Both the position numbers and the translations under genes were made by a program. Shown one piece after another: positions 2,834 to 55,246 of a stretch of 64,000 bases of DNA. Positions within the stretch are counted from its first letter, which is position 1; the number at the start of each line of letters is the position of its first letter. This DNA is from Actinomycetota bacterium (GTDB lineage: Bacteria > Actinomycetota > Acidimicrobiia > Acidimicrobiales > Microtrichaceae), in assembly GCA_016870275.1 (NCBI GenBank), contig VGBZ01000005.1, positions 50,552 to 114,551 of the forward strand. The letters run 5' to 3'. The notes under the pieces are model-generated. The model saw only the letters and a list, made by a program, of their open reading frames with translations, was not told where the DNA came from and did no database searches.

Positions 2834-4093
2834 TCAGAATCGCCGGGCGAAGACGCGCATGATCCCGGCGCCGACGGCCATCATGAATCCGATCACGATC
2901 GTTGACGGATCAAATGCGAGGTCGCCGAGGATCGGCGGCCCCTGTGTTGTTCCGAGCGGGTTGACCTCTGATCCGACCACTCCGGCGATCGAACAGATCA
3001 CCAGGAAGACGCCAACGGCCTGCACCACGGCGAGCATCGGAACGAGGACGAACGACGCCACGGTGCCGCCGACGGTCATGGGCGAGTCGTACGGGTTCTT
3101 CGGCCCGACGAGTCGGAACGCCAGACGGCGAATGAGGGTGACCACACTCGCAGCAACGATCAGCACTCCGAGCAGCAGAGCGATCGGCACCGCAGCCCGG
3201 AACGGTGAGGACGCGCCGACCACCTGCTCGATCGCAGCATCGGTGAGGTCCGACTGTTGGAAGTCGGCGCCGGTCACGATCGCCCCGGTCAGGTCGGCTC
3301 CGCTCAGGTCCGACTGGGTGAACGAGCTGTTGCTCAGGTCGGCCTTCCGCATGTCCGCTGACTGGAAGTACGACTGGGATGCGGTCACGGAGCGCAGGTC
3401 GGCCCCGGTCAGCGTCGCCTCGTTCAGGTAGGTCTGGACCAGATAGGCGTCGGGCAGGAGGGCGTCGGTGAGATCGGCGCCGTTCAACTCGGACTGGGTG
3501 AACTCAGAGTCGCTGGCATCCACCCCGACCATGAGGGCGCCCGTCAGATCGACCTGCGTGAACTCGACGTCGAGCATCGTGGCTCCGACCAGGTCCGCTC
3601 CGGGCAACTCGACCTGCCCGAGGGCCGTGGAGCTGATCTGCACACCGCGCAGGTCGGCACCCTGCAGTTGTGTCTGCGTCATCGTGCCGCTCCGAATCGT
3701 CGTGTCCCGGAGGACCGCACCCCGCAGGTTGGTCTGGGTGAAGTTGACGGACACGAGCGTCGCTCCGCTCAGGTTGGCGCCGTTGAGGTCTGCCTGCGTG
3801 AGGTCGATCCCGGTCATCATCGCCCCCTGCAGGTTGGCGCAACGAAGGTCGATTGAGCTGGGTGCCAGAGGGAGTGGGTTCGTGTTGAAGTCACGCCCCG
3901 GCGCCTGCAGCGGCTCGGCGGGACAGATGATGGCGTCGTCGCCGGATGGCTCCTGAGCGGTCGCCGGTGCTGCGGGCCCACACGCCAGCAGGACGATCAG
4001 TGCCGTGACGCCAGTGCTGGTGAGTGCGCGTCGCCGGGTACCGGACTTGGTGGTCGATCCCATGCCGAGGGGAGCAACGAGCCCGCCGTTCAT
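2834..4093 (-). CDS. exported pentapeptide-repeat protein with N-terminal signal/lipobox and C-terminal transmembrane segments
   Basis: ORF 2834..4585, with a probable ATG at 4093 (MNGGLVAPLGMGSTTKSGTRRRALTSTGVTALIVLLAC...). It has about 55 consecutive A(D/N)LXX pentapeptide units (ANLQGAMMTGIDLTQADLNGANLSGATL...). About 3 hydrophobic helices follow at the C-terminus. Confidence 0.8.
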   Translation of the reverse strand: MNGGLVAPLGMGSTTKSGTRRRALTSTGVTALIVLLACGPAAPATAQEPSGDDAIICPAEPLQAPGRDFNTNPLPLAPSSIDLRCANLQGAMMTGIDLTQADLNGANLSGATLVSVNFTQTNLRGAVLRDTTIRSGTMTQTQLQGADLRGVQISSTALGQVELPGADLVGATMLDVEFTQVDLTGALMVGVDASDSEFTQSELNGADLTDALLPDAYLVQTYLNEATLTGADLRSVTASQSYFQSADMRKADLSNSSFTQSDLSGADLTGAIVTGADFQQSDLTDAAIEQVVGASSPFRAAVPIALLLGVLIVAASVVTLIRRLAFRLVGPKNPYDSPMTVGGTVASFVLVPMLAVVQAVGVFLVICSIAGVVGSEVNPLGTTQGPPILGDLAFDPSTIVIGFMMAVGAGIMRVFARRF

Positions 4094-6800: not shown

Positions 6801-6966
6801 GTACAACAAGCGTTCTCGTACGTCTCGTTCGGTTCAGACGAACCAGCCGTACAAGATCGGTTGTTGTACGTCTCGTTCGGTTCAGACGAACCAGCCGTAC
6901 AAGATCGGTTGTTGTACGTCTCGTTCGGTTCAGACGAACCAGCCGTACAAGATCGGTTGTTGTACG
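6801..6966. repeat. 48-bp direct tandem repeat, three identical copies plus partial flanking copies
   Basis: The unit gtacgtctcgttcggttcagacgaaccagccgtacaagatcggttgtt starts at 6818, 6866 and 6914 (all identical). A fourth copy starts at 6962 and is truncated, and a degenerate partial copy lies at 6801-6817. Each unit contains dyads CGTCT..AGACG / GGTTC-agac-GAACC and CGTACAA-n9-TTGTACG. Confidence 0.95.
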
Positions 6967-33962: not shown

Positions 33963-35270
33963 TCATCGCCGACGGGCGGGTGCCTTCTTCTTGGCGGCTG
34001 CCTTGCGCTTGGCGGGTGCCTTCTTCTTGGCGGCTGCCTTGCGCTTGGCGGGTGCCTTCTTCTTGGCGGCTGCCTTGCGCTTGGCGGGTGCCTTGCGCTT
34101 GGCGGTTGCCTTGCGCTTGGCGGGTGCCTTGCGCTTGGCGGCTGCCTTGCGCTTGGCGGGTGCCTTCTTCTTGGCGGCTGCCTTGCGCTTGGCGGGTGCC
34201 TTCTTCTTCGTTGCCACAGTTTCCTCCTCGGAGGGTTCCCCTTGTTGGGTTGATGGTTGCTTGTTCCCCCCGCCGGACCGTCGGCGGCCAGTGGCCGTCA
34301 GCGCCGGTGGAGAGGTCGTGTCGACGGCGGGTACGCCGTCGGTGAGCGCAAGGTCGATGCCCCGACGTGGGGTGTCGACGCTGCGCACGATGAAGTCGAG
34401 GGTGTCGCCGATGCTCAGGACATCACGGGGACTCCGAGGAGGTGGAGTTCCCATCGCCTTGAGAGCGATGTAGCAGCGGGTGGAGCCGACGTTCACGTAG
34501 GCGCCGTGGGAGGCGAATTCGGTGACCGTGCCGGAGACGACTGTGCCGAGCGGGTGCTCGGAGACGAACGACAGAAACGCTCCCGGAGTGTTGATCGGTT
34601 GGCCGCTGCCGGCCCGGCGGCGTGGATCCGGACCAGCAGCCGTGGCCGTGGCCGTGGCCTTACCTCTGCTCTTCTTGCGGGTTGAGTCCTGCTGCGGCTT
34701 CGTCGGGGCGCCCTCGCTCGACGAGTCGGCCTTCGAACGCCGGTTGGCCGGGCGCCGGGTGCGGCCTGCCCCTCCCTCGGTCGCCTCCGGTGAGGCGGTC
34801 TGGTCAGCGGTGCGCTTCTTCGCTGCCTGACGGGAGCGACGACTCGCCGGTCCACGCACCGGGGTGCGCTCGACGAAGACCCATCCCACCTTGGGTACCG
34901 GCTTCCCGCCCCAGAGCCGGCCGGGTTCGAAGAGCCACTCGTGGTCGCCGTGGAACTCCTGAAACGAATCGTTCGACAGCACGGTGGCGCCGGTCTGCTC
35001 GGCAATCTGCAGCACGAAGGCGTCACCTCGTCCCACTGCGCCAGCCGGCGGCGTGAGCACCTCGCCCGCCAGTACCGCTGCTTCGAACTCGTCGACTTCT
35101 GCTGAGGTAATGCGGTTCGGGAACGTGGCGTCCACCACGACGACGACATTGTCGAACGGGTGCTGTTCGATGAACGAGGTCACGGCGACGTTCAGCTGCT
35201 CCAACGATGGTGCGGTGCGGCCTTCGGTCGCGATGTTCGATCCATCTACGACCAGATGTTGATCAGTCAT
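33963..35270 (-). CDS. NYN/PIN-like (Zc3h12a-type) nuclease domain + S1 RNA-binding domain + Lys/Ala-rich histone-H1-like tail
   Basis: N-terminus: VVDGSNIATEG...VVVVVDATF...GDAFVLQIAEQTGATVLSNDSF. Middle: an S1-like segment, GTVVSGTVTEFASHGAYVNVGSTRCYIALKAM. C-terminal ~85 aa: KKKAPAKRKAAA repeats. Confidence 0.65.
   Translation of the reverse strand: MTDQHLVVDGSNIATEGRTAPSLEQLNVAVTSFIEQHPFDNVVVVVDATFPNRITSAEVDEFEAAVLAGEVLTPPAGAVGRGDAFVLQIAEQTGATVLSNDSFQEFHGDHEWLFEPGRLWGGKPVPKVGWVFVERTPVRGPASRRSRQAAKKRTADQTASPEATEGGAGRTRRPANRRSKADSSSEGAPTKPQQDSTRKKSRGKATATATAAGPDPRRRAGSGQPINTPGAFLSFVSEHPLGTVVSGTVTEFASHGAYVNVGSTRCYIALKAMGTPPPRSPRDVLSIGDTLDFIVRSVDTPRRGIDLALTDGVPAVDTTSPPALTATGRRRSGGGNKQPSTQQGEPSEEETVATKKKAPAKRKAAAKKKAPAKRKAAAKRKAPAKRKATAKRKAPAKRKAAAKKKAPAKRKAAAKKKAPAKRKAAAKKKAPARRR
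33978..34210. repeat. in-frame 36-bp / 18-bp tandem repeats encoding the (K/R)KKAPAKRKAAA tail
   Basis: The unit gggtgccttcttcttggcggctgccttgcgcttggc repeats at 33978, 34014, 34050 and 34158. 18-bp half-units fill 34086-34157. Confidence 0.95.
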
Positions 35271-44585: not shown

Positions 44586-45368
44586 GTGGGGTACGACACC
44601 AGCCTCCTCTACGGCGACGAAAAACTCGTGATCGACACGCACCCGTCATGGGTGATGATGATCCGCTCCGTCATCTACGTCCTCGGCGCCACCGCCATCG
44701 GGGTCTTCCTCATCTCCTGGGGAGGCGATGGGATCTTCGGGACCCTCACCAGCTGGGTGGGTGTGGTCCTGATCGTGCTGGCACTGGGCCATCTCGCCCA
44801 CCACCTGGCCAAGTGGTACTCCACCAACTTCGTCGTCACCACGGAGCGCTGCATCTATCGAGAGGGCATCATCTCCAAGAAGGGCGTGGAGATCCCGCTC
44901 GACCGGATCAACACGATCTTCTTCCACCAGCGTCTCCTCGAGCGCCTGTTCGGTTGCGGGACGCTCCACATCGAGTCGGCGGGCGAGCTGGGTATCCAGC
45001 GGTTCAAGGACGTCCGCGATCCGCTCGGCGTCCAGAACACGATCTACCAGGCCATGGAGGACAACCAGAATCGGCACTACCAGCGAATGGGAACCTCCGC
45101 GGCCCAGGCGGTGGCACCCTCGGCCACGCCGCCGGCCCCGGCGCTGTCGGTGGCCGACGAACTCGCCAAGTTGGCAGCACTGCACGAGTCTGGTCACCTC
45201 ACCGACGCCGAGTTCGCTGCGCAGAAGGCGCTCCTGCTCCAGACTCCTGACAGCACGATCGACATGGGCGCGATCGGCACGGGCGCGATCGGCACGGGCG
45301 CGATCGACACGGGCGCGATCGACACGGGCGCGATCGACACAGGTGGCCCGCCCGCTGGGCAGGCCTGA
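44586..45368 (+). CDS. membrane bPH (YdbS/YdbT-like PH) domain + SHOCT domain protein with a Gly/Ala/Ile/Thr repeat tail
   Basis: LLYGDEKLVIDTHPSW, then two TM helices, then ...IYREGIISKKGVEIPLDRINTIFF (bPH_2-like). LAKLAALHESGHLTDAEFAAQKALLL is SHOCT-like. The C-terminus is (GAIGT/GAIDT)x5. Confidence 0.7.
   Translation: MGYDTSLLYGDEKLVIDTHPSWVMMIRSVIYVLGATAIGVFLISWGGDGIFGTLTSWVGVVLIVLALGHLAHHLAKWYSTNFVVTTERCIYREGIISKKGVEIPLDRINTIFFHQRLLERLFGCGTLHIESAGELGIQRFKDVRDPLGVQNTIYQAMEDNQNRHYQRMGTSAAQAVAPSATPPAPALSVADELAKLAALHESGHLTDAEFAAQKALLLQTPDSTIDMGAIGTGAIGTGAIDTGAIDTGAIDTGGPPAGQA
45266..45340 (+). repeat. 15-bp x5 in-frame tandem repeat
   Basis: gggcgcgatcggcac x2 followed by gggcgcgatcgacac x3, encoding GAIGT GAIGT GAIDT GAIDT GAIDT. 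Confidence 0.95.
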
Positions 45369-52105: not shown

Positions 52106-52942
52106 ATGTCCACGATCGTGTCATTCCATGCTCATCCCGACGACGAGTGCATCGTTTCCGGGGGAACGCTCGCTGCTGCGCACGCCGAGGGTCATCGGAC
52201 CGTGCTCGTCGTGGCCACACGGGGCGAACTCGGCGAGGTGGCGCCGGGCGTGCTTGAGGAGGGCGAGACACTGGCGGAGCGGCGCACGGGGGAACTCCTC
52301 GACGCCGCGCGAATCCTCGGGATCGACCGGGTGGAGTTCCTCGGATACCTCGACTCAGGAGTCGTCGGGGCCGAGAGCAACGAAGCTGATGGTTCGTTCT
52401 GGTCGGCGGACCCTGAGGCGGCGGCCGAGCGACTCGCAGCGATCCTCGACTCCGAGGAACCCGACGTCCTCACCGTCTACGACGACCACGGTGGGTACGG
52501 GCACCCCGACCACATCCAGGTGCACCGGGTCGGTCACCGGGCTGCAGCGTTGAGCGGGGTGCCGCGCGTCCTCGAGGTGACGATGAACCGCGACCACATC
52601 CGCAACCTGCTCGGCCGCAAGCCGGCCGACGCAGTCCGACGTTCGGTTCGTGGGATGCTCCCCAAGAACCGACTCGGCCGGCAGATGCTGCGCAAGCTCA
52701 AGGTCTATGCCGGCCCGTTCGGCTCGCCCGAGGAGATCATCACCCATGCGATCGACGTGTCGGCCTGGCTCGGTGCCAAGCGGGCCGCCATGGCCGCTCA
52801 CGCCAGTCAGATCCCGGCCGACTCCTGGTTCCTGCAACTCCCGGACGACGCGTTCGCCGCTGCGTTCGGCACCGAGTGGTACATCGATCCGAGCTCGCCG
52901 CGGGCCGCCGGTGATGGGTTCATCGATTCCATCTGGCGTTGA
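52106..52942 (+). CDS. PIG-L/LmbE-family deacetylase carrying an internal L13-like segment
   Basis: ATG at 52106 within ORF 51425..52942. Blocks [16 protein letters not shown] (PIG-L zinc motif AHPDDE), GGYGHPDH and C-terminal [10 protein letters not shown]. Confidence 0.8.
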
Positions 52943-52976
52943 TCCCATCTGGCGTTGATCCCATCTGGCGTTGATT
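52929..52976. repeat. 16-bp x3 tandem repeat spanning the stop codon of the PIG-L gene
   Basis: ccatctggcgttgatc at 52929, 52945 and 52961 (the last copy ends in t). The TGA stop at 52940-52942 lies in copy 1. Confidence 0.95.
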
Positions 52977-53010
52977 CCGGCGGTCACGGCTCCGGCGGTA
53001 CCGTGCCGAC

Positions 53011-53394
53011 GTGACCAGTGCCGACGTGACCAGTGCGGTTCAGGGTGTCCACGAGTGGTTCGCCTGGGTGACCGTCATTGCCAACGGCATCGCCGGGACC
53101 TGGTGTCTGGCGGCGCACTGGGTACGCCAGGTCAGGGTCCGGGCGCTGTGGTGGTTCGTGGTGGCCGCCGAGGTCACGATCTTCATCCAGGTGGCACTCG
53201 GCGTGTACCTGCTCGCCGTCGCCGGCCAAGCGGTGGGTGAGTTCCACGTGTTCTACGGGTTCGTCGCCATCGTGGCGGTGGCGGTGCTCTACGGCTACCG
53301 CCAGCAGCTCGTGGCCTGGCAGTACCTGCTCTACGGATTCGGTGGCCTCTTCGTGATGGGCCTGCTGATCCGGTCGATGACGCTGAATCGGTGA
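53011..53394 (+). CDS. small integral membrane protein (about 4 TM), unknown function
   Basis: Hydrophobic helices (WFAWVTVIANGIAGTWCLAA, LWWFVVAAEVTIFIQVALGVYLLAV, FYGFVAIVAVAVLYGY, LLYGFGGLFVMGLLI). The start lies in a 15-bp x2 duplication (53003-53032), so the GTG at 53026 is an alternative start. Confidence 0.55.
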   Translation: MTSADVTSAVQGVHEWFAWVTVIANGIAGTWCLAAHWVRQVRVRALWWFVVAAEVTIFIQVALGVYLLAVAGQAVGEFHVFYGFVAIVAVAVLYGYRQQLVAWQYLLYGFGGLFVMGLLIRSMTLNR

Positions 53395-53437
53395 GGCGGC
53401 GGGAGCCGGTGTGGCGGCGGGTGCCGGTGAGGCGGCG

Positions 53438-55246
53438 TCAGCCGTTGAGGCGGCGCTCGAGGTCGGCGAGCTCGCTGCTCATCTCCTCGGGCAGGCGCTC
53501 GCCGATCGAGTCGAAGTGGGCGTTGATCAACTCCACCTCGTCCTTCCATGCCACAGGGTCGACGGCGAGCAGGGTCTCGACGGTCCTGGTGCTCAGGTCG
53601 AGGCCGTCGAGATCGAGGGCGTCGACGGTCGGGACCAGGCCGATGGGCGTCTCGGTGGCGTCTGCGGTCCCTGCAATGCGTTCGACGATCCACTTGAGCA
53701 CTCGGCTGTTGTCGCCGAAACCGGGCCACAGGAACTCGCCGGAGTCGGACTTCCGGAACCAGTTGACCCAGAACATCCTCGGGAGGGCCTCTGGCCGGGT
53801 CGAACGACCGATCTCGAGCCAGTGGGCGATGTAGTCGCCGACGTTGTACCCCATGAACGGGAGCATGGCGAAGGGGTCGAATCGAACGTCACCGACCGCC
53901 CCGGCTGCCGCTGCGGTCTTCTCGGAGCTCATGATCGATCCGAGGAACGTCCCGTGCTGCCACGACAGCGATTCGGTCACGAGTGGGACGTTGGTGGCCC
54001 GCCGGCCGCCGAAGAGGATGGCCGAGATGGGTACCCCGGCTGGGTCCTCCCACACCGGTGAGATGGATGGGCACTGTGACGCCGGAACGGTGAAGCGTGC
54101 ATTCGGGTGTGCCGCTGGCGTGTCGGACTCAGACGTCCAGTCCTGACGGCGCCAGTCGACCAGGTGGGCCGGTGGCTCCTCGGTCATGTCCTCCCACCAC
54201 ACGTCGCCGTCGTCGGTGGCTGCGACGTTGGTGAACAGAGCGTTGCCCCAGAGGGTCGCCATGGCGTTGTGGTTGGTCGACTCCGACGTCCCGGGGGCCA
54301 CGCCGAAGAAGCCGGCTTCCGGATTGATTGCGTAGAGACGGCCGTCCTCGCCGAACTTCATCCAGGCGATGTCGTCGCCGACCGTCTCGACCTTCCAGCC
54401 GGGCAGCGACGGCACCAGCATGGCCATGTTGGTCTTGCCGCACGCCGATGGGAACGCAGCTGCGAGGTAGACGGTCTCGCGGTCGGGAGGCGTGATCCCG
54501 AGAATCAACATGTGCTCGGCCATCCAGCCGCCGTCTCGGGCCATGGTCGAGGCGATTCGCAGTGCGAAGCACTTCTTGCCGAGCAGCGCGTTGCCGCCGT
54601 AGCCCGAGCCGTAGGACCAGATCTCCCGGGTCTCCGGGAAGTGGGAGATGTACTTGTTGTCGCCGTCGCAGGGCCACGGGACGTCGTCGCGGCGGACGCC
54701 GTCGTCGTCGACGAGCGGATAGCCGACTGAGTGCACGCACGGGACGAACTCGCCGTCGTCGCCGAGAACGTCGAGCGCTCCCTGACCCATGCGGGTCATG
54801 ATCCGCATGGAGACCGCAACGTATGGCGAATCGGTGAGCTCCACGCCGATGTGGGCGATGGGCGACCCGAGCGGGCCCATCGAGAACGGCACCACGTACA
54901 TGGTGCGACCGCGCATGGCACCTCGGTAGAACTCGAGCATCTCGGTTTTGAGTTCGGCCGGGTCCCGCCAGTTGTTGGTGGGTCCGGCGTCGATCTGACG
55001 CTCGGAAGCGATGTAGGTCCGGTCCTCCACACGAGCCACATCGGCCGGGTCCGACTCGGCGAGGTAGCTGTTGGGCCGGAGGTCGTCGTTGAGACGGGTG
55101 AAGGTTCCGTGGTCGACGAGGAGTTGACAGAGTCGGTCGTACTCCTCCTCGGAACCGTCGCACCATTCGACGGCGTCGGGCTGCAGGATCTCCCGCCACT
55201 CCTCGACCCAGTCGATCAGTTGCTGATTGCCTGTCACTGCCGCCAT
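53438..55246 (-). CDS. pckG: phosphoenolpyruvate carboxykinase (GTP)
   Basis: ATG at 55246 ([17 protein letters not shown]...). Kinase-1a motif FPSACGKTN, plus GDDIAWMKF and [18 protein letters not shown]. Confidence 0.95.

Follow-up and report, generated by a model that had tools for sequence, protein, structure and literature searches.

Gene conversion requires flanking homology, while microhomology-mediated template switching (FoSTeS/MMBIR-type) can copy a short ectopic template by way of two switches and leave the same scar as the one described below; events of the latter type have been described mainly for eukaryotic structural variants and, in bacteria, for quasi-palindrome or nearby-template switches. 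Our locus resembles ectopic gene conversion between paralogues in that a short tract was copied non-reciprocally and the donor is unchanged, but donor and recipient are unrelated genes with 7 and 3 nt in common at the joints. [quoted passage not shown]

SPDIR mutations are described as microindels of 3 to about 100 bp which derive from intra- or extragenomic single-stranded (ss) DNA and form at microhomologies in which mismatches and gaps can occur (Harms et al. 2016, as cited in Liljegren et al., bioRxiv 10.1101/2023.11.22.568220). In the model set out in the latter report, ssDNA anneals at an (extended) microhomology on an exposed template and enters the nascent strand like an Okazaki fragment. 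The class was defined in Acinetobacter baylyi using a selectable hisC reporter, where it occurs at ~1e-13 to 1e-12 in the wild type and is suppressed by RecA, RecJ, ExoX and DprA; according to the same report, short-patch illegitimate recombination has been measured almost only with this laboratory reporter, and data for other organisms are scarce (bioRxiv 10.1101/2023.11.22.568220).

We report that an MshB-like deacetylase gene of an uncultured freshwater actinobacterium (Acidimicrobiia-like) carries, in frame, a segment of the gene for ribosomal protein L13 (uL13, rplM). This is very probably the result of a recent ectopic patch in which a fragment of rplM overwrote the linker of the deacetylase gene by means of microhomologies, and which would persist as a neutral passenger. 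As in SPDIR, a short tract has been replaced by ectopic DNA with a small net change in length (97 to 100 nt), the donor is identifiable elsewhere (the rplM of the same population, 110/110 nt identical), and there is microhomology at both joints (7 and 3 nt), the left one being extended with mismatches and gaps. Judged by its scar, the chimera thus appears to be a natural case of the SPDIR-type mutation class, with the mechanism read back from the product. It differs from the reporter system in having arisen in nature, in a freshwater actinobacterium that has not been cultured, and is known here from the scar alone; the patch reaches the upper end of the sizes reported, and the chimeric allele is the sole one recovered from a lake population.

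The MshB-like deacetylase and its L13 block

The window, i.e. the whole stretch of DNA that was analysed, comprises 64,000 nt, and the features that the following sections refer to are:

52106..52942, + strand: CDS of the MshB-like PIG-L/LmbE deacetylase with the graft, 278 aa (open reading frame and translation; identical to NCBI MBM3661941.1)
52127..52147, + strand: HAHPDDE, codons 8-14, metal-binding and catalytic motif of the LmbE fold, intact (family alignment)
52499..52513, + strand: GHPDH, codons 132-136, second metal-binding motif, intact (family alignment)
52607..52716, + strand: identity to rplM codons 92-128 of 149, 110 nt, 100%, same codon phase (blastn 110/110, loci L123-L136)
52607..52613, + strand: left crossover microhomology CTGCTCG, 7 nt, common to the ancestral allele, rplM and the chimera (three-way comparison)
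52614..52713, + strand: donor-only patch, 100 nt, which replaces 97 nt of acidic linker (L001 1006-1102; L137 3509-3605; matching blocks and alignments)
52714..52716, + strand: right crossover microhomology CCC, 3 nt, or 7/9 when the preceding TGNCGN is counted (three-way comparison)

From its two ends the product had been read as a PIG-L deacetylase, and this assignment holds: residues 7-146 match Pfam PIG-L (PF02585) with an E-value of 2.6e-29 and 102.8 bits (curated cut-off 28.2). Six residues of the first motif (H8, H10, P11, D12, D13 and E14) and all five of the second (G132, H133, P134, D135 and H136) are invariant across 120 aligned sequences and match HAHPDDE and GHPDH of MshB, respectively; the second motif lies within GGYGHPDH, and the C-terminal end reads FGTEWYI...SIWR. 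The protein scores 163.4 bits with the NCBIfam model for MshB (TIGR03445 equivalog, cut-off 224.35) and 117.9 bits with the Mca equivalog (cut-off 277.15), and since both scores are below the cut-offs we refer to it as MshB-like rather than as MshB proper. The AlphaFold2 model of the chimeric protein has a mean pLDDT of 90.9 and a pTM of 0.90, and with this model Foldseek returned the MshB structures 1q7t, 4ewl and 1q74 as top matches (E 6e-17, TM 0.72), M. tuberculosis MshB being the first. The host protein thus keeps its catalytic motifs and, as predicted, an intact LmbE/MshB fold. The PIG-L domain, both motifs and the MshB-like predicted fold are what it has in common with the MshB/Mca/LmbE zinc deacetylases, while the ribosomal protein sequence sets it apart from the other members examined.

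The protein is an exact match to the cluster member P0288 (MBM3661941.1, from an 'Actinobacteria bacterium' MAG), and the neighbours of its gene in the window are an amine oxidase gene, a 127-aa open reading frame and the gene for PEPCK. The JGI call of the chimeric gene (P0001, 246 aa) begins 33 codons late, at 52205 instead of 52106, and therefore leaves out the HAHPDDE motif; the ATG at 52106 is backed by the NCBI call (278 aa) and by the family alignment.

Within the CDS, positions 52607..52717 encode an in-frame string of 37 L13 residues. The original prediction had located an L13-like block here, with coordinates that prove right to one base, and residues 160-203 match Pfam Ribosomal_L13 (PF00572; E 3.2e-9, 37.3 bits, above the gathering score of 23.8) over model positions 72-115 of 119. 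Sequence searches against NCBIfam and the PDB gave uL13 matches that are confined to the block, those in the PDB being the uL13 chains of many ribosome structures. Both the residues and the DNA of the block are identical to those of the organism's own uL13 (PF00572, TIGR01066), as deacetylase residues 168-204 correspond exactly to uL13 residues 92-128; unlike uL13 itself, however, the model is covered only in part and the score is far under the full-length cut-off (NCBIfam rplM, TIGR01066: 39 bits against 93.05, model positions 83-127 of 141 only). The deacetylase locus is without the rplM-rpsI context. The chimeric protein is not an L13 paralogue, and about a quarter of uL13 is present. Base composition across the block revealed nothing unusual, the Rfam scan of the window gave no matches, and rplM is not present in the window.

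Tandem repeats occur at several other places in the window. At positions 6818-6966 a 48-nt unit, GTACGTCTCGTTCGGTTCAGACGAACCAGCCGTACAAGATCGGTTGTT, is repeated in tandem 3.1 times without any mismatch (100% matches) and includes a small internal inverted repeat, and an array of 36 nt x6.5 with an 18-nt sub-period (33975-34208) lies inside a long minus-strand open reading frame (33963-35270), where it probably encodes a low-complexity repeat protein. Further coding or near-coding arrays were seen at 45256-45340 (15 nt x5.7) and 53389-53455 (18 nt x3.7).

Donor gene, ancestral allele and joints

The search for the donor used a profile of 32 Acidimicrobiia L13 sequences, into each of which the graft had been pasted, so that the graft columns were invariant and dominated the score, and a large protein collection was searched. 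One profile match, P0161, carries the exact 37-aa string; its cluster includes P0277, i.e. NCBI MBM3662525.1 ('MAG: 50S ribosomal protein L13 [Actinobacteria bacterium]'), as well as P0280, the JGI entry for this protein, which is encoded on 12 contigs. The longest exact match, between 52607-52716 of the window and positions 3274-3383 of the rplM locus L129, is 110/110 nt in all 14 rplM loci fetched (L123-L136), and these lie in the ordinary context rpsD-rpoA-rplQ-truA-rplM-rpsI-glmM. For the other L13 genes examined DNA identity was at most 83-89%. Three further searches yielded no donor: a protein search with the 41-aa block returned short L13 fragments only (best 91% identical, DNA 79-89%); a query composed of the graft and the L13 tail found at least 80 rplM loci among the GTDB species genomes, the best among the matches listed reaching 84% in protein and 81% in DNA and the host genome not being among them; and a degenerate DNA pattern scan of a metagenome contig collection lacking Tanganyika contigs found 33 loci, with a best DNA identity of 83%. 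Identity over 110 nt to 14 independent loci agrees with the earlier judgement that the block is very unlikely to have arisen by chance, and zero divergence over this stretch answers the question whether the copy is recent or ancient in favour of a recent one.

The chimera (MBM3661941.1) and the L13 protein (MBM3662525.1) have accessions that are 584 apart in the same 'Actinobacteria bacterium' MAG series, and the P0280 rplM contigs come from the same samples as the chimeric contigs L004-L007 (3300021091, 3300020200, 3300020198 and 3300020220). This proximity of accessions and co-occurrence in samples, on separate contigs, indicate that the donor rplM is almost certainly in the same MAG as the chimera. 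GC content is similar as well (0.675 as compared with 0.687). The linker is acidic in 119/119 homologues and the block is universal in L13, which identifies rplM as the donor and the deacetylase gene as the recipient. Moreover, since the patch and rplM show no divergence and the flanks differ by ~1-2% from the ancestral alleles, the event must be very recent on an evolutionary scale. The proposed capture of an rplM 3' fragment is thereby supported as far as the capture is concerned (a donor that is 100% identical, and a sister allele without the block), with the correction that codons 92-128 of 149 are not the very 3' end of the gene.

Two side observations concern rplM in other data. The first 300 positions of L008, an ENA scaffold from another metagenome, hold the rplM 3' part from ETKPTEAVRRSV... 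to the stop codon, followed by rpsI; the 124 nt before the rplM part are not L13-like in any frame, and the codon at which L13 homology sets in nearly coincides with the left edge of the deacetylase graft. L008 may reflect a chimeric assembly, or else a separate rearrangement that struck rplM in the same place. The proteins P0134-P0137 are 49-aa calls that comprise the L13 C-terminus only. They come from long ENA contigs (57-202 kb), and their start codons were probably called too late, the alternative being a truncated or split rplM.

To identify homologues of the deacetylase, 5.8 billion proteins were searched and the best 120 matches were listed; among these, PF00572 is carried only by the chimeric protein itself (P0001), and the L13 block is absent from all 119 close homologues that were aligned, i.e. 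the orthologous PIG-L genes do not have the segment. The closest proteins apart from the chimera, P0002, P0289, P0290, P0291 and P0293 (277 aa), have 1-3 substitutions relative to the chimeric protein outside residues 170-203, and in this region P0002 and its cluster mates read EAQAAAVVGDVVDETSVEDSSAELEVPDIDGDD or minor variants thereof. At the DNA level the flanks of the block are ~99% identical to the ancestral allele and the difference is sharp-edged. The ancestral-allele contig L137 is 98.0% identical to the window across 6.85 kb with unchanged gene order (hydrolase, CoA-transferase, amine oxidase on the minus strand, deacetylase, small open reading frame, PEPCK on the minus strand, RecG). 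Furthermore, the sister MAG GCA_046080765.1 has the ancestral deacetylase (MFM7509664.1) together with an rplM that is identical over the 110-nt patch stretch and at 449/450 positions overall.

Apart from ~70 scattered substitutions, the window and L137 differ only in the block and in a 15-nt tandem duplication at 53003-53017; a clustering of rearrangements near the patch is thus unsupported, this duplication being the one further indel in the 6.85 kb compared. Two short repeats 3' of the deacetylase gene vary in copy number between close lineages. One, at 52925-52975, has a 16-nt unit x3.2 across the stop codon, with 2 copies in L001, 3 in L137 and 3 in the window, the difference being specific to L001. 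The other, at 53003-53036 at the start of the next open reading frame, has a 15-nt unit x2.3 and one copy in both L001 and L137.

The ancestral allele was recovered from the samples 3300042197/8, 3300022556, 3300014720 and 3300017788, one ENA run and two SRA runs, whereas no ancestral-allele contigs were found from the Lake Tanganyika samples. Five Tanganyika samples yielded the chimeric allele and no other, consistent with its being dominant in the lake.

When the window is compared with L001, the matching blocks stop at 52613 and restart at 52714. Between these points 97 nt of acidic linker have been replaced by 100 nt from rplM, a net change of +3 nt. The original prediction, which had described the L13 sequence as embedded in the deacetylase, was right about its presence; the block replaces a linker of nearly equal length and was not inserted. 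Position 52607 starts deacetylase codon 168 and position 3274 of L129 starts rplM codon 92, so the two genes share the codon phase of the left microhomology and the patch is read in the L13 frame; together with the net gain of 3 nt this gives an in-frame product with 34 L13 residues. Immediately inward of the left joint, the ancestral linker aligns with rplM in an extended microhomology (25/31 columns match, 2 gaps, score 15) that is equalled by 0.07% of random pairs of 40-nt windows from both genes (p about 0.0007). At the right joint, extending the alignment past the 3 nt gave nothing better than random (p 0.19).

Possible routes to the chimeric gene and effects on the protein

These data suggest the following course of events. 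A piece of ssDNA from the cell's own rplM (codons 92-128) would have entered the deacetylase gene, or a nascent strand would briefly have copied rplM, with joining at two microhomologies, the left-hand CTGCTCG and the right-hand CCC. In this way the patch would have overwritten the linker and left the donor intact, the catalytic motifs and the predicted fold would have been kept with the graft tolerated in the linker, and the chimeric allele would then have become the only one recovered in the Tanganyika population, most likely by drift or hitch-hiking and not through an L13 function. The mechanism is read from the scar, and the same product is left by SPDIR, by a replication template switch in two steps and by a patch copied from RNA.

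Concerning the source of the patch, the same product could have come by another route, either from extragenomic rplM DNA of a close relative that was acquired through transformation or, with RNA as template, from the abundant rplM mRNA. The rplM of the sister lineage is identical over the 110 nt, so that a foreign donor would be indistinguishable, and the patch lies wholly within the transcribed coding region in sense orientation, as an RNA template would have it. We know of no documented RNA-templated repair for such events in bacteria. SPDIR has been reported with both intra- and extragenomic ssDNA and to rise in natural transformation (bioRxiv 10.1101/2023.11.22.568220). Against either source, the resident rplM is a perfect match and the simplest origin. 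A foreign donor and an RNA template are therefore possible but less parsimonious than the cell's own rplM DNA, and we regard such routes as unlikely.

How the protein would accommodate the graft can be judged from the family and from the predicted structures. No columns of the family alignment are less conserved than those of the linker (0.27-0.40 as compared with 0.6-0.98 elsewhere), and the graft is the only low-confidence part of the AlphaFold2 model (residues 171-200, pLDDT 58/53/63), in which two helices are predicted within it (residues 174-184 and 189-200). In the model of the ancestral allele (mean ~91) the same region is also weak (pLDDT 69/46/69), with a helix tail followed by coil. 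The linker is the structurally most permissive place in the deacetylase, in agreement with the earlier placement of the block in a variable middle loop, and structure prediction likewise puts the block in a low-confidence linker with the core fold predicted to be intact. That the graft sits in one poorly conserved, low-confidence linker would explain why the allele is tolerated. Among the 119 homologues the linker varies in length (22-44 aa) and is always net acidic (-13 to -3), and this freedom in sequence and length combined with a constant acidic character suggests selection on charge, not on sequence. With the graft the charge of the linker changes from -12 to +10. Full neutrality of the graft is questionable in this respect, and the flip in charge may be deleterious or otherwise consequential.

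The change in charge is also among the observations that would favour a selected, functional graft, in which the basic helix-loop-helix of L13 that contacts 23S rRNA would give the deacetylase an association with RNA or the ribosome, mimic L13 or interfere with L13 assembly or autoregulation, and the allele would have swept the lake for this reason instead of being a passenger. It breaks a rule held by 119 homologues, which makes it unlikely to be invisible; the block is intact and in the reading frame of the donor; two helices are predicted in it; and the allele is the sole one recovered from the five Tanganyika samples. On the other hand, the graft comprises 37 of ~149 L13 residues and lacks the remainder of the fold (pLDDT 53-63; 39 bits with NCBIfam rplM as compared with the cut-off of 93), and the L13 contacts are therefore unlikely to be reproduced. 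PF00572 is found in no other protein among the best 120 matches listed, a non-acidic linker in 0/119 aligned homologues, and with zero divergence of the patch from rplM selection has not had the time to leave its mark. Hitch-hiking can, moreover, fix neutral or mildly deleterious alleles in a single lake population. A functional graft, which the original prediction had itself labelled as speculation, finds no support in these data and we consider it very improbable; if true, it would mean that a new protein feature was born by a single SPDIR event and caught in the act.

An assembly or sequencing chimera, in which the assembler spliced in an L13 block that is present in no cell, had also been put forward. 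The data are metagenomic and known from assemblies, and rplM is of high coverage in the same samples. De Bruijn assemblers, however, need k-mer overlaps far longer than 7 or 3 nt, and such joints cannot give graph mis-joins. Two joins 100 nt apart, leading back into the same gene and in frame, would have been needed, and no ancestral-allele contigs were found from the Tanganyika samples. The identical chimeric sequence with identical junctions is present on five contigs from five Lake Tanganyika metagenomes, one of which agrees with the window at every position (100%) along 6,496 nt, and again in the NCBI MAG protein. According to the paper on the Tanganyika data, which lists these IMG ids, the 24 samples were each assembled de novo and separately with metaSPAdes. 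Given its recurrence in five metagenomes that were assembled one by one, we do not consider the chimeric allele to be an assembly artefact, and give this explanation next to no credence.

Finally, we considered a double frameshift, in which two indels that compensate each other would shift the reading of the acidic linker so that it yields the basic string and resembles L13 by chance. This would fit a length difference of one codon only and the tendency of acidic GC-rich codons to read Arg-rich in other frames. It is ruled out since over the 100 nt the two alleles have unrelated DNA, the acidic linker is not encoded in any other frame or on the other strand of the window, and the patch is 110/110 identical to rplM.

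Significance of the chimeric allele

Taking the reading of a recent patch from rplM, the chimera is a natural instance of a known, rarely documented mutation class and not a new kind of system. The locus represents a fully resolved natural case, with donor, recipient, ancestral allele, both joints and population context at hand. For the annotation of such proteins it follows that a two-domain Pfam call, in this case PIG-L and Ribosomal_L13, can record a mutational scar and not a domain architecture. More generally, short-patch events are one way to remodel a protein loop at a stroke, and such events can make in-frame chimeric proteins that persist in wild populations.
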